Assembly (NCBI RefSeq): GCF_035084215.1
Contig: NC_090328.1
Location: forward strand, 127,286,001-127,350,000
Length of the DNA stretch: 64,000 nt
Reading direction: 5' to 3'
Source of the DNA: Heptranchias perlo
Lineage: Eukaryota
The translations under genes and the position numbers were made by a program. Each line of letters opens with the position of its first letter. The stretch's first letter is position 1. Under the pieces are notes generated by a model. It searched no databases, had not been told where the DNA came from, and worked only from the letters and a program-made list of their open reading frames with translations. Positions 5,700 to 63,476 of the stretch are shown in pieces.

Positions 5700-7528
5700 A
5701 GTGTTTTATAAATACATTAAGAGCAAGAGGATAACTAAGGAAAGAGCAGGGCCTATTAGAGACCAAAAAGATAACCTATGTGTGGAGGCGGAAGATGTTG
5801 GTATGGTTCTTAATATTTTGAATCTGTCTTCATAAAAGAGAGGGACGATGCAGACATTGTAGTTAAGGAGGAGGAGTTTGAAATATTGGATGGGATAAAC
5901 TTAGTGAGAGAGGAAATATTAAGGGGTTTAGCATCTTTGAAAGTGGATAAATCACCAGAGCCGGATGAAATGTATCCCAGGCTGTTAAAAGAAGCAAGAG
6001 AGGAAATAGCGGAAGCTCTGACCATCATTTCTCAATCTTCACTGGATACAGACGTGGTGCCGGAGGATTGGAGGACTGCTAACATTGTACCATTGTTTAA
6101 AAAGGGAGTGAAGGATAGACCGAGTAATTACAGGCCAGTCAGTCCAACCTCGGTGGTGGGTAAATTATCGGAATCAATTCTGAGGGATAGGACAAACCGT
6201 CGCTTAGAAAGGCACGGAGTAATCAAGGACAGTCAGCATGGATTTGTTAAGGGAAGGTCGTGTCTGACTAACTTGATTGAATTTTTTGAGGAGGTAACAA
6301 GGAGTGTCAATGAGGGTAGTGCATTTGATGTAGTCTACATGGGTTTTAGCAAGGTTTTTGATAAGGTCCCACATGGCAGACTGGTCAAAAAAGTACAAGT
6401 CCATGGGTTCCAAGGGAGAGTGGCAAGTTCGATCCAAAATTGGCTCACTGGCAGGAAGCAATGGGTAATGGTCGACGGGTGTTTTTGTGACTGGAAGGCT
6501 GTTTCCAGTGGGGTTCTGCAGGGCTCAGTACTAGGTCCCTTGCTTTTTGTGATATATATTGATGATTTGGACTTAAATGTAGGGGGCATAATTAAGAAGT
6601 TTACAGATGATACAAAAATTGGCCGTGTGGTTGAAAATGAGGAGGAAAGCTGCAGACTGCAGGAAGATATCAATGGACTGGTCAGGTGGGTAGAAAAGTG
6701 GCAAATGGAGTTCAATCCAGAGAAGTGTGAGGTAATGCATTTGGGGAGGGCAAACAAGGCAAGGGAGTACACAATAAATGGGAGGAGACTGAAAGGTGTA
6801 GAAGAAGTGAGGGACCTTGGAGTGCATGTCCACAGATCCCTGAAGGTAGCAGGACAGGTAGATAAGGTGGTTAAGAAGGCATATGGAATACTTCCCTTTA
6901 TTAGACGAGACATAGAATATAAGAGCAGGGAGGTTATGCTAGAACTGTATAAAACACTGGTTAGGCCACGGCTTGAGTACTGTGTACAGTTCTGGTCACC
7001 ACATTACAGGAAGGATGTAATTGCACTAAAGAGAGTACATAGGAGATTTACGAGGATATTGCCAGGACTGGAGAATTTTAGCTATGAGGAAAGATTGGAT
7101 AGGCTGGGGTTGTACTCTTTGGAACAAATGAGGCTGAGGGGTGATTTATTGAGGTGTACAAAATTATGAGGGGTCTAGATAGAGTGGATAGGAAGGACCT
7201 ATTTCCCTCAGTAGAGAGGTCAGTAACCAGCGGGCGTAGATTTAAAGTGATTGGTAGAAGGATTGGAGGGGAGCTGAGGAAAAAAATGTTCACCCAGAGG
7301 ATGGTGGGGGTCTGGAACTCACGGCCTGAAAGGGTGGTAGAGGCAGAAACCCTCAGCTCATTTAAAAAGTACCTGGATGTGCACTTGAAGTGCTGTGACC
7401 TACAAGGCTGTGGACCAAGTGCTGGAAAGTGGGATTAGGCTGGGTGGCTCATTTTCGGCCGGCGCGGGCACGATGGACTGAATGGCCTCCTTCTGTGCCG
7501 TAAATTTTCCATGATTCTATGATTCTAC
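5700..7528 (+). mobile_element. 5'-truncated CR1 LINE with largely intact RT (427-aa ORF 5886..7169)
   Basis: Full RT motif set; (ATTCTATG)n tail at ~7510-7527; candidate 9-bp TSD AAGTGTTTT at 5699-5707 and 7529-7537. Confidence 0.92.
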
Positions 7529-26961: not shown

Positions 26962-29900
26962 TAGAATCATAGAAGTTTACAACATGGAAACAGGCCCTTT
27001 GGCCCAACATGTCCATGTCGCCCAGTTTATACCACTAAGCTAGTCCCAATTTCCTGCACTTGGCCCATATCCCTCTATACCCATCTTACCCATGTAACTG
27101 TCCAAATGCTTTTTAAAAGACAAAATTGTACCCGCCTCCACTACTGCCTCTGGCAGCTCGTTCCAGACACTCACCACCCTTTGAGTGAAAAAATTGCCCC
27201 TCTGGACCCTTTTGTATCTCTCCCCTCTCACCTTAAATCTATGCCCCCTCGTTATGGACTCCCCTACCTTTGGGAAAATATTTTGACTATCTACCTTATC
27301 TATGCCCCTCATTATTTTATAGACTTCTATAAGATCACCCCTAAACCTCCTATTCTCCAGGGAAAAAAGTCTCAGTCTATCCAACCTCTCCCTATAAGTC
27401 AAACCATCAAGTCCCGGTAGCATCCTAGTAAATCTTTTCTGCACTCTTTCTAGTTTAATAATATCCTTTCTATAATAGGGTGACCAGAACTGTACACAGT
27501 ATTCCAAGTGTGGCCGAACTAATGTCTTGTACAACTTCAACAAGACATCCCAACTCCTGAATTCAATGTTCTGACCAATGAAACCAAGCATGCTGAATGC
27601 CTTCTTCACCACCCTATCCACCTGTGACTCCACTTTCAAGGAGCTATGAACCTGTACTCCTAGATCTCTTTGTTCTATAACTCTCCCCAACGCCCTACCA
27701 TTAACGGAGTAGGTCCTGGCCTGATTCGATCTACCAAAATGCATCACCTCACATTTATCTAAATTAAACTCCATCTGCCATTCATCGGCCCACTGGCCCA
27801 ATTTATCAAGATCCCGTTGCAATCCTAGATAACCTTCTTCACTGTCCACAATGCCACCAATCTTGGTGTCATCTGCAAACTTATTAACCATGCCTCCTAA
27901 ATTCTCATCCAAATCATTAATATAAATAACAAATAACAGCGGACCCAGCACCGATCCCTGAGGCACACCGCTGGTCACAGTTTGAAAAACAACCCTCTAC
28001 AACCACCCTCTGTCTTCTGTCGTCAAGCCAATTTTGTATCCAATTGGCTACCTCACCTTGGATCCAGTGAGATTTAACCTTATGTAACAACCTACCATGC
28101 AGTACCTTGTCAAAGGCTTTGCTAAAGTCCATGTAGACCACGTCTACTGCACAGCCCTCATCTATCTTCTTGGTTACCCCTTCAAAAAACTCAATCAAAT
28201 TCGTGAGACATGATTTTCCTCTCTCAAAACCATGCTGACTGTTCCTAATCAGTCCCTGCCTCTCCAAATGCCTGTAGATCCTGTCTCTCAGAATACCCTC
28301 TAACAACTTACCCACTACAGATGTCAGGCTCACCGGTCTGTAGTTCCCAGGCTTTTCCCTGCCGCCCTTCTTAAACAAAGGCACAACATTTGCTACCCTC
28401 CAATCTTCAAGCACCTCACCTGTAGCTGTCGATGATTCAAATATCTCTGCTAGGGGACCCGCAATTTCCTCCCTAACCTCCCATAACGTCCTGGGATACA
28501 TTTCATCAGGTCCCGGAGATTTATCTACCTTGATGCGCATTAAGACTTCCAGCACCTCCCTCTCTGTAATATGTACACTCCCCAAGTTCCCTAACATCCA
28601 TGCCTTTCTCAACCGTAAATACCGATGTGAAATATTCATTTAGGATCTCACCCATCTCTTGTGGTTCCGCATACAGATGACCTTGTTGATCCTTAAGAGG
28701 CCCTACTCTCTCCCTAGTTACTCTTTTGCCCTTTATGTATTTGTAGAAGCTCTTTGGATTCTCCTTTGCCTTATCTGCCAAAGCAATCTCATGTCCCCTT
28801 TTTGCCCTCCTGATTTCTCTCTTAACTCTACTCCAGCAATCTCTATACTCTTCAAGGGATCCACTTGATCCCAGCTGCCTATGCATGTCATATGCCTCCT
28901 TCTTCTTTTTGACTAGGGCCTCAGTCTCCCGAGCCATCCAAGGTTCCCTACTTCTACCAGCCTTGCCCTTCACTTTATAAGGCATGTGCTCACCCTGAAC
29001 CCTGGTTAACACACTTTTGAAAGCCTCCCACTTACCAGACGTCCCTTTGCCTGCCAACAGACTCTCCCAATCAACTTCTGAAAGTTCCTGTCTAATACCA
29101 TCAAAATTGGCCTTTTCCCAATTTAGAATTTTAACTTTTGGGCCAGACCTATCATTCTCCATAGCTATCTTAAAACTAATGGAATTATGATCACTGGTCC
29201 CAAAGTGATCCCTCACGAACACTTCTGTCACCTGCCCTTCCTTATTTCCCAAGAGGAGGTCAAGTTTTGCCCCCTCTCTAGTCGGGCCATCCACATACTG
29301 AATGAGAAATTCCTCCTGAATACACTCAACAAATTTCTCCCCATCCAAGCCCCTAATGCTATGGCTGTCCCAGTCAATGTTGAAAAAGTTAAAGTCCCCT
29401 ACTATTACCACCCTATTTTTCTTGCAGCTGTCTGTAATCTCCTTACATATTTGCTCCTCAATTTCCCGTTGACTATTTGGGGGTCTGTAGTACAATCCTA
29501 TCAAAGTGATCTCTCCCTTCTTATTTTTCAGTTCTACCCATATAGACTCAGTGGGCGAACCCTCGGATATATCCCCTCTCACTACTGCCGTGATGTTCTC
29601 CCTAATCAAGAACGCAACTCCCCCTCCTCTCTTACCTCCTGCTCTATCTTTCCTATAGCATCTGTACCCTGGAACATTGAGCTGCCAGTCCTGCCCCTCC
29701 CTTAGCCATGTTTCAGTAATAGCTATAACATCCCAGTCCCATGTACCCATCCATGCCCTGAGTTCATCTGCCTTGCCCATCAGACTTCTTGCATTGAAAT
29801 AAATGCAGTTTAATCTAGACTTCCCTTGGTCTTTGCCCTGCTTTCTCAGACCATCTGTCCGGTCATGTTTTGTACACTCTCCTTTACTGCCTTTTGTTTC

Positions 29901-30566
29901 TGTCACCACTTTACTTCCCACTGACTTCCTACATCGGTTCCCATCCCCCTGCCACATTAGTTTAAACCCTCCCCAACAGAACTAGCAAACACTCCCCCTA
30001 GGACATTGGTTCCAGTCCTGCCCAGATGCAGACCGTCCAATTTGTACTGGTCCCACCTCCCCACGAAACGGTTCCAATGGCCCAGGAATTTGAATCCCTC
30101 AAGCCACGTATTCATCCTAGCTATCCTGTCATTCCTACTCTGACTAGCCCATGGCACTGGTAGCAATCCTGAGATTACTACCTTTGAGGTCCTACTTTTT
30201 AGTTTAACTCCTAACTCCCTAAATTCAGCTTGTAGGACCTCATCCCGTTTTTTACTTATATCGTTGGTACCTATATGTACCACGACAACTGGCTGTTCAC
30301 CCTCCTCCTCCAGAATGTCCTGCAGCCGCTCCGAGACATCCCTGACCCTTGCACCAGGGAGGCAACATACCATCCTGGAGTCTCGGTTGCGTCCGCAGAA
30401 ACGCCTGTCTATTCCCCTTACAATCGAGTCCCCTATCACTATAGCTCTGCCACTCTTTTTCCTGCCCTCCTGTGCAGCAGAGCCATCCACGGTGCCATGA
30501 ACCTGGCCGCTGCCACCTTCCCCTGGTGAGCCATCTCCCACAACAGTATCCAAAACGGTATCCAAA
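26962..30566 (-). mobile_element. Near full-length CR1 LINE: ORF1 C-terminal SGNH-esterase domain and ORF2 (APE endonuclease, RT) in three pieces
   Basis: VIGDSIVRG and VVVHIGTND (esterase); YFNARS, IAITETWL, VGDFN, SDHN (APE); RT motifs; (ATTCTATG)n tail; 7-bp TSD ATGATAA at 26955-26961 and 30567-30573. Confidence 0.95.
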
Positions 30567-36225: not shown

Positions 36226-39200
36226 TGCAAACGTGACTCCAGGATGGTATGTTGCCTCCCTGGTGCTAGGGTCAAGGATGTCGTGGAGAGGCTGCAGGGC
36301 ATTCTGGAGCGGGAAGGTGAACAGCCAGTAGTTGTGGTCCATATCGGTACCAAGGACATAGGTTAAAAAAAAAGGGATGAGGTCTGGCAAGGTGAATTTA
36401 AGGACTTAGGAGATAAATTAAAAAGCAGGGCCTCAAAGGTAGTGATCTCAGGATTACTAGCAGTGCCACGTGCTAGTGAGTATAGGAACAGGAGAATAGA
36501 CCGGATGAATGCGTGGCTGCAGGGATGGGATAGGAGGGAGGGATTTAGATTCCTGGGACATTGGGACCGGTTCTGGGGAAGGTGGGACCTGTACAAGCGG
36601 GATGGGTTACACCAGAGCAGGATCGGGACCAATGTCCTCGTGAGGGTGTTTGCTACTGCTGTTGGGGAAGGTTTAAACTAGAGTGGCAGGGGGATGGGAA
36701 CCTGAGCGGGGAGTCAGAAGGGAGTCAAGATGAGAGCAGCAAGAGAGGGGAAGACCCAGGGGAAATTTACAATACAAATAGTACAAACAGTTGTTCAAGA
36801 ACAAGTGAAAGGGAAAAGCGTAGAGCAGCAGAAAGAAAGTGTACTTTAGGCACTACAGATAAAGTGAAAACGAGAAGGCGTAAAGCGATTAACCCAGCAT
36901 CAAAGCTGAAGGTCAGGCTAGGGTGTGTGGCCCAACTAAGAGTTCTATATACAAATGCACGGAGTATAAGGAATAAATTAAATGAACTACAGGTTCAAAT
37001 TCAAATTGGAGGGTATGACATGATAGCTATTACTGAGACATGGCTGCAGGATGGTCAGGATTGGGAACTAAATATATCGGGTTATAAGGTCTATAGGAGA
37101 GATAGGGAAAATGGGAGGGGGGAAGAGTAGCCTCAGTGATTAGGGATGAAATCACTTCAATGATAAAGGAGGATATAACGAGAGGTAAGCAGCCAACAAA
37201 GACCTTATGGGTTGAATTGAGAAATAGGAAAGGATCTAAGACTATAGTGGGAGTTGTGTATAGGACCTCTGGCAGCAGCTCTGAAGTGCTAGATTGTATA
37301 AATGCAGAGATTAGACAAGCGTGTAATAAAGGCATAGTGGTCTTAATGGGGGACTTTAACCTTCACATAGATTGAGAAAAGCAGACTAGCAACTGTCAGA
37401 AAGGTAGTAAATTTCTTGAGTGTGTCCGGGATAGTTTTCTACAGCAGTATGTCCCAGAGGCAACAAGGGGGCAAGCCACACTAGATTTAGCAATGAGTAA
37501 TGAACCAGATTTAGTTAACAGCTTAACTGTGCGTGAACATCTATCCAATAGCGATCATAACATGATCGAGTTCAATGTTCTAAGATTCTAGACTTGGGTG
37601 GGATGAGACAGAGACTGTCCACAGCAAACTGGGCAAATCTGTTAATGGGTAAAACGACTGATGATCAGTGGGAAATGTTTAAAGAAACATTTAACGTGAT
37701 ACAGAATCGGTTTATACCCCTGAGGGGCAAGAACACTACTTGCCAAAAAAAACTAGCCATGGACAACTAAAGAGGTAAGGGACAGTATAAGACATAAGGA
37801 AAGGGCATACAAAAAGGCAAAAAATGGCACAGATCCTGACGAATGTGAAAGATACAAAGATCAACAAAGGGTCACAAAACAGATAGTAAGAGCTACAAAA
37901 AGAGTATGAAAAGAAACTTGCAAGGGATATCAAAAAGAGGGTGGTCAGGAGCAATGTTGGCCCCTTCAAAACTGAAAGTGGGGATATTGTCATTGACAAT
38001 GGGGAAATGGCGGACATGTTGAACAATTACTTTGCGTCAGTATTTAGTGGAGAAAGAGGATAGCATGCCGGAAATCCCAAGAAAACTAATATTGAATTGG
38101 AGACAGGGACTCAATAAAATTAACATAAGTAAAACAACAGTAATGAAGAAAATAACAGCACTAAAGAGTGACAAATCCCCAGGACCAGATGGTTTCCATC
38201 CCAGGGTTTTAAAGGAAGTAGGTGAGCACATTGCGGATGCCCGAACTATAATCTTTCAAAGTTCTCTAGATTCAGGAACTGTCCCTCTAGATCGGAAAAT
38301 TGCACATGTCACTCCGCTTTTTAAGAAAGGAGAGAGAGGGAAACCAGGGAATTATAGACCAGTTAGCCTAACTTCTGTTGTGGGGAAAATGCTGGAGCCT
38401 ATAATTAAGGATAGGGTGACTGAACACTTTGAGAATTTTCAGTTAATCAGAGAGAGCCAGCATGGATTTGTGAAAGGTAGGTCGTGCCTGACAAACCTGA
38501 TTGAATTTTTTGAAGAGGTGACTAAAGTAGTGGACAGGGGAATGTCAATGGATGTTATTTATGTGGACTTCCAGAAGACATTTGATAAAGTCCCACAGAA
38601 GAGACTGTTAGCTAAGATAGAAGCCCATGGAATCGAGGGAAAAGTACGGGCTTGGTTAGGAAGTTGGCTGCGCGAAAGGTTACGGAGAATGGGGATAACA
38701 GGTAAGTACTCACATTAGGAACATAGGAACAGGAGTAGGCCATTCAGCCCCTCGTGCCTGCTCCGCCATTTGATAAGATCATGGCTGATCTGTGATCTAA
38801 CTCCATATACCTGCCTTTGGCCCATATCCCTTAATACCTTTGGTTGCCAAAAAGCTATCCATCTCAGATTTAAATTGGCAGGATGTGACTAGTGGAGTCC
38901 CGCAGGGATCTGTCTTGGGGCCTCAATTATTCACAATATTTATTAACGACTTAGATGAAGGCATAGAAAGTCTCATATCTAAGTTTGCCGATGACACAAA
39001 GATTGGTGGCATTGTAAGCAGTGTCGATGAAAACATAAAATTACAAAGCGATATTGATAGATTAGGTGAATGGGCAAAACTGTGGCAAATGGAATTCAAT
39101 GTAGACAAATGTGAGGTGATCCACTTTGGATCAAAAAAGGATAGAACAGGGTACTTTCTAAATGGTAAAAAGTTAAAAACAGTGGATGTCCAAAGGGACT

Positions 39201-39904
39201 TAGGGGTTCAGGTGCATAGATCATTGAAGTGTCATGAACAGGTGCAGAAAATAATCAAGAAGGCAAATGGAATGCTGGCCTTTATATCTAGAGGACCAGA
39301 GTACAAGGGGGCAGAAGTTATGCTGCAGCTATACAAAACCCTGGTTAGACCGCACCTGGAGTACTGTGAGCAGTTCTGGGCACCGCACCTTCGGAAGGAC
39401 ATGTTGGCCTTGGAGGGAGTGCAGCGTAGGTTTACTAGAATGATACCCGGACTTCAAAGGTTAAGTTACGAGGAGAGATTACACAAATTGGGGTTGTATT
39501 TTGTAGAGTTTAGAAGGTTAAGGGGTGATCTGATCAAAGTTTATAAGATATTAAGGGGAACAGATAAGTGGATAGAGAGAAACTATTTCCGCTGGTTGGG
39601 GATTCTAGAAGTAGGTGGCACAGTCTAAAAATTAGAGCCAGACCTTTCAGGAGTGAGATTAGAAAACATTTCTACACACAAAGGGTGGTAGAAGTTTGGA
39701 ACTCTCTTCCGCAAACGGCAATTGATACTAGCTCAATTGCTAAATTTAAATCTGAGATAGATAGCTTTTTTGGCAACCAAAGGTATTAAGGGATATGGGC
39801 CAAAGGCAGGTACATGGAGTTAGATCACAGATCAGCCATGATCTTATCAAATGGCGGAGCAGGCACGAGGGGCTGAATGGCCTACTCCTGTTCCTATGTT
39901 CCTA
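36226..39904 (+). mobile_element. Near full-length CR1 (ORF1 esterase C-terminus, APE, RT), multiply disrupted
   Basis: VVVHIGTKD; LYTNARS; IAITETWL; MGDFN; RT ORFs 38032..38718 and 38840..39628; (TTCCTATG) tail. Confidence 0.92.
38716..38875 (-). mobile_element. Short CR1 3'-end insertion, inverted copy of the host element's own 3' end
   Basis: Reverse complement of ~39743-39904 with about 3 differences by eye; interrupts GKYSH|WQDVTSGVPQG. Confidence 0.88.
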
Positions 39905-47026: not shown

Positions 47027-47673
47027 CTGGAAGATAACAGAAATATTTTGTCATAAATTAGCCATATATTTCTGCTATTGATTAAACTGCTGTGTTATAC
47101 AACAATCAGAATGTATTAATAACAATGTGACTACAATAACAGGTTTTAGGATTTGTGATTAATATCAATTTTTACATGCTTGCCACAACAATTTAAATAT
47201 ATTATATGATACACTTTAAAGGTATGTAACAAACATCACAAATGAAAAATACATTTTACTGACCATTTTGATAAAGCCACATGCAGACATTACAATGTAT
47301 TTTAAAATAAAATGAATGGGTTAATGCCTCCACTGAAATAGCAAAGAGGAATATCTTATGAATATATTAAGTGTTTGTTGATATGACCAACAGAAATTTC
47401 TAGGCTACGATAATGAAAACATCTTTTCATTCAATAGGAGTTCAATTTAAAAATTGAACTATTAATAAATATTTTTACAGATTTTAAAATATGGTCACCA
47501 GTTCACTTACTCACTGCTGATACTAATGAAAAAAACATTCACATGGTTAATCTCTGAGAGATTGTTAAACCATTGCAGGTAAGAAACTTTGACGTTGCAA
47601 TTCCACAAGGGTCCCACTGGTGTGGTGCCACAGTCTTGAGACATGTATAGTCAATAGGTTTGGAATCACCTAC

Positions 47674-48229
47674 CTCAAAGACCATATGAATATATGGTGT
47701 GAGTTTAATCCGTTCACTGTTTGCGAGACATAGCATCTTGTTATCATCAAGTACTGTATTCATATTCTCAATCCACAGTGCATCAACGGGACCATCACTG
47801 ATAATCCATTTGTGTTCTTCAGTTTCATCATTCACAGCTGCACGGACACTAAGTGCCATTAGCCCATCGTTCCATTCCAGTGTCAAGCTATTTATTTCAC
47901 CATACAGTTCACCCATCGTGATTGATTTGGGGTTTAGCACATACGTTTTCACAGGCTGATATGATGGGTCTATCTCACCAGCACTATGCAAAGTTCCAAG
48001 AGTTTCTGCCAGAATCTGGTAAACAGTAGTTTTGCCACTTCCAGTAGGCCCAACCAGCATAACACCATGGCGTACAATCATGGTTTCGTACAACTGTATG
48101 ACCTTTACAATCATAGTAGGGACAGGTTGCAGGCCACGGTTAAGCATGACTTCAATAGTCGTTTGCTGGAATGAACCATAATCATGATCTGGAATAACAA
48201 CTCCCGGAAATAAGTCTGACAGGATTCCA
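47674..48229 (-). CDS. DNAH6: DNAH6 exon with AAA2 (GILSDLFP...VRHGVMLVGPTGSGKT...DGPVDALWIENMNTVLDDNKMLCL...FE)
   Basis: 556 nt, TTTAG acceptor, GTAGGT donor, phase 2/0; lies within ORF 47539..48258. Confidence 0.96.
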
Positions 48230-48501
48230 CTAAAGGGAAAAAAGAAAAACTTCACCATAGTCTATCGTCAAATCATTCTGAAACAAATATATCATTCAAT
48301 AAACTAAAGATACTTTATATCTTATTATTGCACCTGTGCGGTCAATTTTACTGAAATCTTCTGAAGAACAAATCCAATTTGGAATTTTTAAGTTTTAAAT
48401 GAAATAGGGGCAGCATCCCAAAAGGATGTGAACAGACTAAAAAAGGATAGTGTTGGATTACATAATAATGATAATTTTAAAATAAAGGACCCGCAATGTA
48501 C

Positions 48502-51525: not shown

Positions 51526-51901
51526 CAAGGAATGCATAAACAATAGCGCAAGATCCGCATATATTTATTTACTAAATTACTTCATGTTAACAATTTTGAC
51601 CAGCTGAGAAACAAAATGTTATAGACTCCAAGCTCTTCTCATTAAAGGATTGGTGAGCAGTATACATTGCTGAAAGGCCTAGCTAATGTTGTTTAGTATT
51701 CAAGTGAAATCTGAGGCGCTGGCGCCAGTGGAAAAAAAATTGACTTGTCAATATATGCTTTCACAGTACAGGTTTTCTGGATAATTATATTGCAATGTAG
51801 TGACCATGAACTCATGAAACCCTAACTTCATTAAGCTGGGCCAAGCAAGAGCCATACCATCAGTTAGAAGCTCTGAGATAGGTTCAATCTCTGGTCTGTG
51901 C

Positions 51902-54900
51902 TTTTTTTTTTATTCGTTCACGGATTGTGGGCGTCGCTGGCGAGGCCAGCATTTATTGCCCATCCCTAATTGCCCTTGAGAAGGTGGTGGTGAGCCACCT
52001 TCTTGAACCGCTGCAGTCCGTGTGGTGACGGTTCTCCCACAGTGCTGTTAGGAAGGGATTTCCAGGATTTTGACCCAGCGACAATGAAGGAACGGCGATA
52101 TATTTCCAAGTCGGGATGGTGTGTGACTTGGAGGGGAACGTGCAGGTGGTGTTGTTCCCATGTACCTGCTGCTCTTGTCCTTCTAGGTGGTAGAGGTCGC
52201 GGGTTTGGGAGGTGCTGTCGAAGAAGCCTTGGCGAGTTGCTGCAGTGCATCCTGTGGATGGTGCACACTGCAGCCACTGTGCGCCGGTGGTGAAGGGAGT
52301 GAATGTTTAGGGTGGTGGATGGGGTGCCAATCAAGCGGGCTGCTTTCTCTTGGATGGTGTCGAGCTTCTTGAGTGTTGTTGGAGCTGCACTCATCCAGGC
52401 AAGTGGAGAGTATTCCATCACACTCCTGACTTGTGCCTTGTAGATGGTGGAAAGGCTTTGGGGAGTCAGGAGGTGAGTCAATCGCCGCAGAATACCCAGC
52501 CTCTGACCTGCTCTCATAGCCACAGTATTTATATGGCTGGTCCAGTTAAGTTTCTGGTCAATGGTGACCCCCAGGATGTTGATGGTGGGGGATTCGGCGA
52601 TGGTAATGCCGTTGAATGTCAAGGGGAGGTGGTTAGACTCTCTCTTGTTGGAGATGGTCATTGCCTGGCACTTATCTGGCGCGAATGTTACTTCCCACTC
52701 ATGAGCCCAAGCCTGGATGTTGTCCAGGTCTTGCTGCATGCGGGCTCGGACTGCTTCATTATTTGAGGGGTTGCGAATGGAACTGAACACTGTGTAGTCA
52801 TCAGCGAACATCCCCATTTCTGACCTTATGATGGAGGGAAGGTCATTGATGAAGCAGCTGAAGATGGTTGGGCCTAGGACACTGCCCTGAGAAACTCCTG
52901 CAGCAATGTCCTGGGGCTGAGATGATTGGCCTCCAACAACCACTACCATCTTCCTTTGTGACAGGTATGACTCCAGCCACTGGAGAGTTTTCCCCCTGAT
53001 TCCCATTGACTTCAATTTTACTCGGGCTCCTTGGTGCCACACTCGGTCAAATGCTGCCTTGATGTCAAGGGCAGTCACTCTCACCTCACCTCTGGAATAC
53101 AGCTCTTTTGTCCATGTTTGGACCAGGGCTGTAATGAGGTCTGGAGCCGAGTGGTCCTGGCGGAACCCAAACTGAGCATCGGTGAGCAGGTTATTGGTGA
53201 GTAAGTGCCGCTTGATAGCACTGTCGACGACACCTTCCATCACTTTGCTGATGATTGAGAGTAGACTGATGGGGCGGTAATTGGCCGGATTGGATTGGTC
53301 CTGCTTTTTGTGGACAGGACATACCTGGGCAATTTTCCACATTGTCGGGTAGATGCCAGTGTTGTCGCTGTACTGGAACAGCATGGCTAGAGGCACAGCT
53401 AGTTCTGGAGCACAAGTCTTCAGCACGACAGCCGGGATGTTGTCGAGGCCCATAGCCTTTGCTGTATCCAGTGCACTCAGCCGTTTCTTGATATCACGTG
53501 GAGTGAATCAAATTGGCTGAAGACTGGCTTCCGTGATGGTGGGGATATCGGGAGGAGGCCGAGATGGATCATCCACTCGACACTTCTGGCTGAAGATGGT
53601 TGCAAACACTTCAGCCTTGTCTTTTGCATTCACGTGCTGGACTCCGCCATCATTGAGGATGGGGATGTTTGCAGAGCCTCCTCCTCCCGTTAGTTGTTTA
53701 ATTGTCCACCACCATTCACGACTGGATGTGGCAGGACTGCAGAGCTTTGATCTGATCCGTTGGTTGTGGAATCGCTTAGCTCTGTCTATAGCATGTTGCT
53801 TCTGCTGTTTAGCATGCATGCAACCAGTTTTGAGCTGCTAGATCCATTCTGAATCTATCCCATTTAGCACGGTGGTAGTGCCACACAACACGTTGGATGG
53901 TGTCCTCAGTGCGAAGACGGGACTTCATCTCCACGAGGACTGTGCAGTGCTCACTCCTACCAATACTGTCATGGACAGATGTATTTGCGACAGGTAGATT
54001 GGTAAGGACGAGGTCAAGTAAGTTTTTCCCTCGTGTTAGTTCGCTCACCACCTGCCGCAGGCCCAGTCTGGCACTCTGCTACCGAGCCACTCTTGGTGAT
54101 GGACATTGAAGTCCCCACCCAGAGTACATTTTGTGCCCTTCAGTGCTTCCTCCAAGTGGTGCTCAACATGGAGGAGGACTGATTCATCAGCTGAGGGAGG
54201 ACGGTCGGTGGTAATCAGCAGGAGGTTTCCTTGCCCATGTTTGACCTGATGCCATGAGATTTCATGGGGTCCAGAGTCAATGTTGAAGACTCCCAGGGCC
54301 ACTCCCTCCTGACTGTATATCACTGTACCGCCACCTCTGGTGGGTCTGTCCTGCCGGTGGGACAGGACATACCCAGGGATGGTGATGGAAGAGTCTGGGA
54401 CGTTGGCTGAAAGGTATGATTCTGAGAGTATGACTAGTCTGTGGGACAGCTCTCCCAATTTTGGCACAAGTCCCCAGATGTTAGTAAGGAGGACCTTGCA
54501 GGGTCGACTGGGCTTGGTTTGCCGTTGTCGTGTCCGGTGCCCAGTGGTCCGATGCCGGGTGGTCCGTCCGGTTTTATTCTTATTATGACTTTTCGTAGCG
54601 AGATTTTACAACTGAGTGGCTTGCTAGGCCATTTCAGAGGGCAATTAAGAATCAACCACATTGCTGTGGGTCTGGAATCACATTTAGGCCAGACCGGGTA
54701 AGGACGGCAGGTTTCCTTCCCTAAAGGACATTAGTGAACCAGATGGGTTTTTACGACAATCCGGTAGTTTCATGGCCATCAGTATTTTAATTCCAGATTT
54801 TTATTTAATTAATTGAATTTAATTAATTAAATTTAAATTCGCCAGCTGCCGTGGCGGGATTTGAACTCATGACTCTGGATTTTAGTCCAGGCCGCTGGAT

Positions 54901-54937
54901 TACTAGTCCAGTAACATAACCACTATGCTACCGTCCC
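51902..54937 (-). mobile_element. Longest LINE family B copy: tRNA-derived head, SINE-like core, single APE-RT ORF (disrupted), stem-loop 3'UTR, poly(A)
   Basis: APE motifs VLLTNIWGL, ILSESYL, GGDFNVHH, LLDLVLTN, RSEH; 495-aa RT ORF 51966..53453 (NYRPISLLS, QFGFR, ALDIKAAFDRVWH, QGSVLGP, FADD); head at 54841-54937. The RT is clearly distinct from the CR1 copies; its clade (CR1/L2 supergroup, possibly Zenon-like) is inferred. Confidence 0.9.
54857..54930 (-). promoter_or_regulatory. Type-2 RNA polymerase III internal promoter in a tRNA-Thr(AGT)-like head
   Basis: A box TAGCATAGTGG (54930-54920), B box GAGTTCAAATCC (54868-54857), anticodon arm CTGGA-CTAGTAA-TCCAG. Confidence 0.75.
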
Positions 54938-55886
54938 CACAATCTACCAACCTTAAAATGTAAAAGGAATTCAAATTACCATGAGAAACACATTCTGGCC
55001 TAGTAATTGGATCACACTGTGCCTGGTTTACAGGCACAAAACGGGCACCTCAGTGGCCAATATGACAGGTGTTGGGTGGCACTCATTCTGCGCCAGAAGT
55101 ATGCTGCCTACCATATTGGTGAAGGATCCTCCTTAAAAGTCCAGGGCGTTACGACCTTTCCATATGCCGTGCCTGCTGAGGTCAGTTTCTTGAGGTGCTT
55201 AAAGTGACCGCTGCAGACTGCCACCAGAAAGGTCAGATGAATATTTTTACCTATCTTATTGTGGAGCTGGGAGGAGCAGAAGTGCTCCTCCCAGCTCCAC
55301 ATTAAATCCGTGGGCTGCTGCCAGCCAACGCTCACCTCCTCCCAATTGCCACACCCCCACACCCCCAACCTAGACTCTGCTTAAGATCCCAGTGCTTCCC
55401 TGGGCTACCGAGCTGCCCCTGGGCCGCGATTGGTGCCTGCAGCTTGAAGGTAATGAGCAAATGAGGCCGGCGGACCAAATTCTCACGGTCTTGCCTCCAA
55501 TCACTTTTGACCCGTGTGCTGCACTCTTATCGTGCCCCAATTCGGGCATGGTTCAATTTCTAGGTCTCTGTTTCAGCTTAATGCACTTTCTGAAGTTTAT
55601 AGAACACAAAAGAAAAGTTACAAAAGATCTGTAACCTATTTTCTCTCTCTGTCACACACATGGTCTCACTTGCTAAAAGCACTTTACCTGAATAAAATTT
55701 TTGAAATTTGTCCTCTTGCTTGCCTTCAAATAATTATGAAAAACAATTCAGCAGAAACTGATCGAAGTTAAAGAAAATGTTCCATCAGTGCAGATGATTT
55801 AATGGTACTGATCCTATTATTGCAACTATGTTGACCAATGAAAAAGGAAAAAGCATAAAAGAAAAGTATCTCAACAATTCAATTAC

Positions 55887-62396: not shown

Positions 62397-62597
62397 CTAC
62401 ACAAACGTTAAACACTGAATATTACTAACAGAAAAACTATCAACTTAAACAAATTCCTTTCACATTGTTAAATGGCTTGGTATCCCATTTTCAAGTGACA
62501 TTAAATGTAAAATCAAAATATAAGGGGGATTTTAACTGCCAGCTGGTATCTGGTGAGAAACCGCCAGTTTCAGTTAGATTCCCACCACCTGCGGCAG

Positions 62598-63476
62598 AAT
62601 GGCTCAGGAGGACTGCGACAAAATACAGGAAGACATTAATAAACTTGCAGAATGTGCACGTAATTGGCAAATTAATTTCAATATAGCTAAGTGTGAGGTA
62701 TTACGTTTTGGTAGGAAGAATAAGTGGGCCACATACTGCTTGGATAATAAGAGTCTAAATGGGGTAGAGGAGCAGAGGGATCTGGGGCTACAGATACACA
62801 AATCACTAAAAGTAACGATGCAGGTTAATAAGGCTATAAAAAAGGTAAACCAAGCACTGGGGTTCATTTCTAGAGGGATAGTATTGAAAAGCCGAGAAGT
62901 TATGTTAAGCTTGGTTAGACCATACTTGGAGTACTGTGAACAGTTCTGGTCTCCACATTATAAAAAGGATACAGAGGCACTGGAGAAGATGCAAAAACAA
63001 TTTACTAGGATGATACCAGAACTGGGAGTTATACCTATCAAGATTGAGCAAGCAGTGGCTCTTTATCTAGAAAAGAGAAGACTGAGGGGTGACCAGATAG
63101 AGGTCTTTAAGATTGTGAAAGGGTTTGATAGGGTGGACGTAGGGAGGAAGTTTCCACTTTTGGGGGAGACCAGAACAAGGGGCCATAAATATAAGATAAT
63201 CACTAATAAATCCAATAGGGAATTCAGGAGAAACCTTTTTACCCAGAGAGTGGTTGGGATGTGGAACTCGCTACCACAAGGAGTAGTTGAGGCGACTAGC
63301 ATGGATGCATTTAAAGGGAAGCTAGATAAACACATGAGGGAGAAAGAAATAGAAAGATATGCTGATAGGGTTGGATGAAGTTGGGAGGGAGAAGGCTCGT
63401 GTGGAGGATAAACACCAGCATGGACTTGTGAGCTGAATGGCCTGTTTCTGTGCTGTACATTCTATGTAATTCTATG
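62598..63476 (+). mobile_element. CR1 3' fragment (RT C-terminus, 259-aa ORF, tail)
   Basis: WQINFNIAKCEVLRFG, LVRPYLEYCEQFWSP; TTCTATGTAATTCTATG tail. Confidence 0.88.

Follow-up and report, generated by a model that had tools for sequence, protein, structure and literature searches.

Runs of four or more T (T4) stop RNA polymerase III (Pol III); one minus-strand repeat of the Heptranchias perlo genome does without them over its entire length of three kilobases. The repeat lies at positions 51902..54937 of a stretch of 64,000 nucleotides (contig NC_090328.1, positions 127,286,001 to 127,350,000; hereafter the window, to which all window coordinates refer). The question raised by this locus is whether a protein-coding LINE can be a Pol III transcription unit and, if so, how its RNA would be translated. 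The usual view assigns the transcription of LINEs to Pol II and that of SINEs to Pol III (PMC2666806; literature is cited here from the accessible part of each source). IGR IRESs have been raised as a possibility for the translation start of LINEs that lack ORF1 (PMC3894237), and the conserved central domain of SINEs has been called unexplained (PMC5499810). Whether SINEs may arise by a single deletion from a tRNA-headed LINE is a further question that the element raises.

The element and its family

Anatomy and sequence identify the element as the elasmobranch CR1-Zenon LINE, present here in a damaged copy. Zenon is defined by the absence of ORF1 and by a poly(A) tail (PMC13343379, Stuart et al. 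2026), and the element, about 3.3 kb long, has one endonuclease-RT frame (973 codons), no ORF1 and a poly(A) tail. The APE-endonuclease and RT share this single frame (51966..54605, minus strand; Pfam Exo_endo_phos and RVT_1), which is broken in the window copy by deletions and frameshifts; intact natural copies carry it as one frame of 968-973 codons with both domains. It is followed by a short 3' UTR (51902..51965, minus strand) without an internal terminator, where AATAAA is fused to the A-tail. For comparison across species we used the Zenon consensuses in the accessible supplement of PMC13343379, examining by eye the first 400 nt of each of the seven from elasmobranchs (white shark, stingray, whale shark, catshark and three dogfish); those without a head come from two hagfish and one coelacanth. 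The first 400 nt of the element are, by eye, nearly identical to SquAca_Zenon-1 and CarCar_Zenon-1, and nothing in its sequence sets the element apart from the published family. CR1-Zenon LINEs have also been noted in whale shark (10.1101/443036).

We take the family to be young and abundant in the host genome, because the 150 places scored in a protein search, out of 77,698 candidates, were all 98-100% identical over the endonuclease. From these 150 we used a set of 80 protein-picked copies, the first chromosomal ones in the list with unplaced contigs excluded, and 32 of the 80 have an open frame of at least 960 codons. A nucleotide search of the host genome with the 5' 638 nt of the element returned 2687 candidates, of which 40 were scored and 39 fetched; most of the fetched copies span about 3.3 kb up to the A-tail, and 28 of the 39 contain no T4. 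An older subfamily in the same genome has the same head, domain and frame, its commonest letter differing from that of the young subfamily at 213 of 3316 columns (20 older copies). TSDs are mostly absent or short, reaching at least 5 nt in 6 of 52 full-length copies. The closest homologous named proteins (P0003-P0011) are 35-43% identical, and a search of IMG/VR found no relative of the element. Contigs of four sequencing runs span all 30 bins of the element and are uninformative on strand, start and expression.

Several smaller observations concern the copies and their surroundings. Internal deletions of 5-40 nt are common in the 5' region and the frame among copies L031-L069 when set against the window copy, which suggests error-prone reverse transcription or template jumps. 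Pieces of the Zenon frame, at 72-95% identity, occur in the annotated shark proteins P0002, P0056, P0075, P0077 and P0088, and are likely to be gene-model artefacts or exonisation. Within the window, an exon of a dynein heavy chain gene lies at 47539-48261 (minus strand; Pfam AAA_6 and AAA_5), on the same strand as the Zenon copy, which likely sits in an intron of that gene. Canonical CR1 copies with long open frames are found at 5814-7169, 27040-29981, 36549-39628 and 62578-63378.

A tRNA-like head with A and B boxes

The 5' end of the element is a tRNA-like head with a duplicated anticodon arm (54845..54937, minus strand). It scores 20.3 bits against the Rfam tRNA family, under the gathering score of 29, and ARAGORN called no tRNA gene in it. 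The head contains an A box, TAGCATAGTGG (54920..54930, minus strand), identical in 40 of 42 covering copies, and a B box, GAGTTCAAATCC (54857..54868, minus strand), identical in 52 of 53. We take this A box to match the type 2 Pol III consensus, and internal A and B boxes near the 5' end to be the mark of a type 2 unit.

The family itself begins with this head: 36 of the 80 copies, all of them picked by their endonuclease match, start exactly at its base 1, and 42 of the 80 start within 8 nt, the others being scattered truncations. By eye, it also stands at the start of all seven elasmobranch Zenon consensuses in the accessible supplement and is missing from all three hagfish and coelacanth ones. 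The A and B boxes are intact across five species, four sharks and one ray (partly by eye, from the same material). The base at -1 is G in 46 of the 52 full-length copies. Reverse transcription of the cap is a feature of L1, and this G may be either a copied cap or the element's first base.

Downstream of the head lies an AT-rich palindromic stretch, seen as a self-inverted match and followed by an internal AATAAA (54797..54838, minus strand); the stretch is free of T4, as are 47% of its shuffles. Two internal AATAAA hexamers are kept, the one at element position 133 by 52 of 60 copies and the one at position 372 by 78 of 78; the CR1 of the window has none. Two AATAAA inside the first 400 nt would be hazardous for a Pol II transcript.

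A pattern search for a parent tRNA gene gave only element-type heads among the 100 matches listed of 1137. The anticodon arm is duplicated in tandem (window 54875-54912, minus strand) in the Heptranchias perlo lineage and in dogfish; by eye, in the accessible consensuses, the second arm has diverged in white shark, whale shark and catshark, and stingray has a single arm.

An AUG-less frame behind a near-invariant domain

The first Met shared by the copies is codon 250 (78 of 80), downstream of the endonuclease. Nine AUGs lie further upstream, each ending at a stop or out of frame, and none reaches the endonuclease-RT frame. As with the non-AUG start of type 6 IRESs, the frame opens directly 3' of a structured domain of about 155 nt, a candidate IRES (54609..54762, minus strand). 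The domain (element positions 187-343) is near-invariant, with 8 commonest-letter differences between the young and old subfamilies, and by eye it is nearly identical in four sharks and one ray in the accessible consensuses. It ends in a 3' hairpin with a 7-nt anticodon-like loop, CUAGCAA (54612..54637, minus strand), present in both the MFE and the centroid fold. The AGC of this loop is complementary to an invariant in-frame GCT (54597..54599, minus strand), the predicted position of the translation start.

In the linker behind the domain, 5 of the next 6 bases differ between the subfamilies and GCTA is unchanged. Relative to the endonuclease, the GCT keeps the frame in 10 of 10 old copies with correct anchoring (2 others were mis-anchored and dropped, and 18 were not measurable) and in 8 of 8 measurable young copies. 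In the accessible consensuses it likewise keeps the frame, by eye, for white shark, stingray, catshark and whale shark; dogfish Zenon-1 has it off frame by one base, and a deletion removes this part from the two remaining dogfish entries. Whale shark keeps the frame with a linker shorter by 1 nt, so that the frame would be set at or after the GCT. We predict that the element is translated cap-independently from the folded domain, without cap and AUG, an IRES mechanism being less certain than Pol III transcription.

Of known systems, the type 6 (IGR) IRESs of dicistroviruses come closest to this arrangement, above all the short classes 6d and 6e. Type 6 IGR IRESs are 142-205 nt long, their 3' pseudoknot (PKI) mimics anticodon-codon pairing, and their first codon is GCU, ACU or similar (PMC10275262, PMC10516663). 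The element measures about 165 nt from the start of the domain to the GCU and shares with them a predicted 3' hairpin, its anticodon-like loop, a variable A-rich linker and a non-AUG start, predicted at the GCU or beside it. A second pseudoknot, formed by AGGG and CCCU, may close just before the last hairpin, as in type 6 IRESs. Unlike these IRESs, the element is a cellular retrotransposon, its loop-codon pairing comprises 3 bp only, its candidate pseudoknots lack support from covariation, and no Rfam IRES family matches it up to E=5.

Taken alone, the domain folds no better than its shuffles (z -0.12), and the whole 5' 384 nt folds better (z -3.9). The candidate helices for PKII and PKIII are near-invariant across the subfamilies, and loop AGC and GCT are invariant in all families compared. 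The closing pair of the hairpin is A.C in the young subfamily, G-C in the old one and A-U in stingray (by eye), and one pair of an AAGG/CCUU helix is changed on both sides in whale shark; covariation thus amounts to little beyond these two double-sided changes. A U[G/A]A[U/C]C 5-mer, a candidate L1.1 motif but short enough to occur by chance, lies upstream in most families and not in the young subfamily.

By analogy with PKI, we tentatively suggest that the loop AGC pairs with GCU as an anticodon-codon mimic, a proposal to which we give rather less than even weight. Held with a similar degree of reserve is a reading that keeps the Pol III RNA and dispenses with the mimic, GCU being either the first codon decoded from some other IRES fold or part of a factor-dependent near-cognate start. 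GCU is indeed the usual first codon in type 6 IRESs, preceded by ACC or CUC in HalV and APLV1 (as far as the accessible sources go), and loop U33 is variable, T standing there in no more than 77 of 103 young copies. In most families the triplet that precedes GCT (ACC, ACT, ATC) could, by eye, pair with a GGT that lies upstream and is invariant, but the CTC triplet of the young subfamily cannot. A start without the mimic also sits poorly with the joint invariance of loop AGC and GCT, and no near-cognate start codon is conserved between the subfamilies.

Depletion of T-runs on the sense strand

The preliminary description of the locus had reported that the plus strand contains no A4+ run, and the sense strand accordingly no T4, across 51912-54937. 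This was borne out: the plus strand is A4-free over 51740-54954, a gap of 3215 nt that is the longest in the window (the next being 1539 nt). Its by-eye counts for 51912-54937, about 10 AAA and about 17 T4+ runs on the plus strand, came to 10 and 18 when recounted. The five short family-B copies, said to lack sense TTTT, have 0 sense T4, and the CR1 at 26962-30566, said to be rich in them, has 13, at the positions named.

The further claim, that zero TTTT independently supports the promoter, proved weak, as 6-8% of composition- or codon-matched shuffles are also at zero. Against mononucleotide shuffles of the window copy the expectation is 4.4 (P=0.009). Dinucleotide shuffling leaves the count below expectation (0 vs 2.5) short of significance (P=0.06), and synonymous-codon permutation of an intact copy does the same for T4 (0 vs 2.1, P=0.08). 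The firmer signal is the depletion of TTT, with 5 in the intact copy against 12.5 expected under this codon permutation (P~0.001); runs of A, C and G have no deficit matching it. All 32 intact frames, which are not independent copies, hold 4-7 TTT against 11.8-14.9 expected by codon permutation. Phe in the intact frame is encoded by 3 TTT and 16 TTC, and NNC codons are generally preferred (156:229). The comparison with CR1 is uneven in base composition (T 0.24 vs 0.21), but the four CR1 frames used as a control have no TTT deficit under the codon test.

The depletion extends over the family. T4 is absent from 65 of the 80 protein-picked copies, the rest having private or tail runs. A T4+ run in the family consensus had been named as counter-evidence; only one TTTT site is common to 2 of the 80 copies, and none to more. 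Among 20 copies of the older subfamily no TTTT site occurs in at least 25% of copies, and decayed copies gain T4 singly. Sequencing-run contigs have 239 majority differences, and none of the 40 listed makes a sense T-run longer than 2. By eye, TTTT is missing from the first 400 nt of all seven elasmobranch Zenon consensuses in the accessible supplement, whereas all three headless Zenons have T4+ runs.

For a wider comparison we collected 80 metagenome loci and kept the 72 with a frame of at least 400 codons, dropping 8; these relatives are distant (25-41% identity). T4 is present in 71 of the 72, and 9 of the 10 relatives with T of at most 0.26 carry at least three T4 runs. For TTT, the observed/expected ratio of 0.40 in Zenon is lower than in any of the 72 relatives, whose minimum is 0.73. 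Phe makes up 1.95% of the element's protein and 2.8-4.6% in 12 relatives. Rfam returned nothing in the 20 of the 80 relative loci that were scanned.

Avoidance of T-runs is not absolute, since 61 of the 80 young copies carry TCTTT at element position 560, a derived state; TCTTT is about 50% efficient as a terminator in B2 transcripts in HeLa (PMC8466645). Moreover, changes that make TTT are not rarer among shared than among singleton variants (1/9 vs 13/112), a test of low power. The proposal that the sequence has been selected for readability by Pol III, with the tRNA head as promoter, stands with this reservation as the best-supported reading. It is favoured because of the TTT depletion, the Phe codon use, the sharp 5' end, the intact A and B boxes, the contrast across species and the internal AATAAA; of the signs supporting it, the T4 count carries least weight.

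Zenon could instead be a Pol II LINE that has captured the 5' part of a SINE as its UTR, the head being a passenger or accessory and the poverty in T coming from C-ending codons and low T content. Such an origin, which we consider unlikely, agrees with zero T4 lying within the codon and dinucleotide nulls (P 0.06-0.08), with the NNC preference, with the tolerated TCTTT, with the terminal AATAAA and poly(A), and with the G at -1. It leaves unexplained, however, why the TTT deficit remains with codon usage fixed and is the lowest of 73 frames, why the boxes are intact in five species, why two AATAAA stand within the first 400 nt, and why none of nine upstream AUGs reaches the frame. A good deal less probable is a T4-free stretch due to chance and uninformative on the polymerase. 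The P values under matched nulls would allow it, but the TTT depletion recurs in all 32 intact frames (again as non-independent copies), the older subfamily has no widely shared TTTT site either, and Zenon consensuses with a head contrast with those without.

One of the distant LINE relatives, L172 (3018 nt, 29% identity), has no sense T4 in its whole contig, with 5.6 expected in the frame; its 5' end is missing from the contig. Its freedom from T4 counts against our reading, but it may be another LINE of the Pol III type, or a chance case among the 72.

A proposed route of expression

From what is directly seen (the anatomy, the A and B boxes, the sense T-run depletion and the lack of an AUG before the endonuclease) we infer Pol III transcription and the translation start. 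The element is probably an autonomous Pol III-transcribed LINE driven by its tRNA-like head, with an AUG-less frame predicted to be translated from the upstream domain. Pol III would start at the head, read through the whole of about 3.3 kb because T4 runs are absent, and stop at the first T-run of the flanking DNA. The uncapped RNA would recruit ribosomes via the 155-nt domain, and translation would begin at or just after the invariant GCU. Pairing of the hairpin loop AGC with GCU, like PKI of dicistrovirus IGR IRESs, would be the least certain step. Target-primed reverse transcription from the tail would follow, per LINE biology.

That an upstream AUG feeds the frame via stop read-through, frameshift or splicing is very improbable: an in-frame AUG does stand at 318, with a UAG two codons further on, and the one at 289 opens an overlapping +1 frame, but the young subfamily and dogfish have a second in-frame stop (TAA), the old subfamily has GTG in place of ATG, the whale shark linker puts both AUGs into a different phase with respect to the protein, and no joint from the 5' region into the frame start is among the 15 of 592 joints listed.

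Zenon would in this light be a known family with a seemingly undescribed expression strategy. The words 'tRNA' and 'Pol III' have 0 occurrences in the accessible text of PMC13343379, as have 'tRNA' and 'promoter' in the accessible part of its supplement, and neither part describes the head, the T-run depletion or the AUG-less start. A literature search, made outside subscription journals and Repbase reports, turned up neither an autonomous LINE driven by Pol III nor this head. New here are the absence of Met until codon 250 and the opening at GCT behind a near-invariant domain with an anticodon-like hairpin at its end. A recently active LINE of high copy number, its Pol III head intact, its coding strand poor in T-runs and its frame lacking an AUG, would be a protein-coding Pol III unit that occurs in nature. 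The translation start in ORF1-less LINEs, the role of the SINE central domain and the origin of SINEs by one deletion all become testable in this one element.

Short derivatives and relation to SINEs

Pattern matching in the host genome gave 68 SINE-like elements that have the head, the domain and the tail and lack the frame. Their breakpoints vary (L180-L229), many falling just after GCTA, and they are likely to be internal-deletion derivatives of the Zenon LINE. SINEs derived from tRNA, among them B2 and other T+ SINEs (PMC8466645), resemble the element in the tRNA-like head with A and B boxes, the central conserved domain and the LINE-type tail in which AATAAA precedes the A-tail. Unlike them, the element has an endonuclease-RT frame, intact at 973 codons in intact copies, ten times the length and no built-in terminator. 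Persaeus SIDEs derived from lepidopteran Zenon (PMC6740152) are, as here, short derivatives that retain the 5' and 3' ends of the LINE and have lost the frame; according to the accessible part of that source they have no tRNA homology or Pol III promoter, whereas the derivatives described here are structurally tRNA-SINEs.

A more far-reaching version of our proposal, which we advance with considerable doubt, places Zenon on a SINE programme as a whole. Pol III would make a 3.3-kb uncapped mRNA, a factorless IGR-type IRES with the mimic would start its translation, and SINEs would arise by internal deletion, keeping the ribosome-binding domain for capture of the RT. If true, the domain would represent an IRES akin to type 6 that is cellular and belongs to a vertebrate, and would provide a working model for the conservation of the SINE central domain.

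DeuSINEs such as SacSINE1 (PMC5499810, PMC7245038) are shark SINEs that likewise combine a tRNA head with a conserved body, but the Deu motifs of the published alignment are unmatched inside the Zenon element. We rejected the SacSINE1/Deu-domain label, since two Deu motifs (PMC7245038 Fig S4) do not occur in the element even with 3 mismatches allowed. The original DeuSINE paper or the supplement of PMC5499810 may name the SINE head. The 3' flank of one copy (L034:517-589, minus strand) carries a different repeat, in which a Deu-domain motif is matched exactly. Contigs from the sequencing runs of three other organisms contain the same kind of deletion joint as the SINE-like elements.
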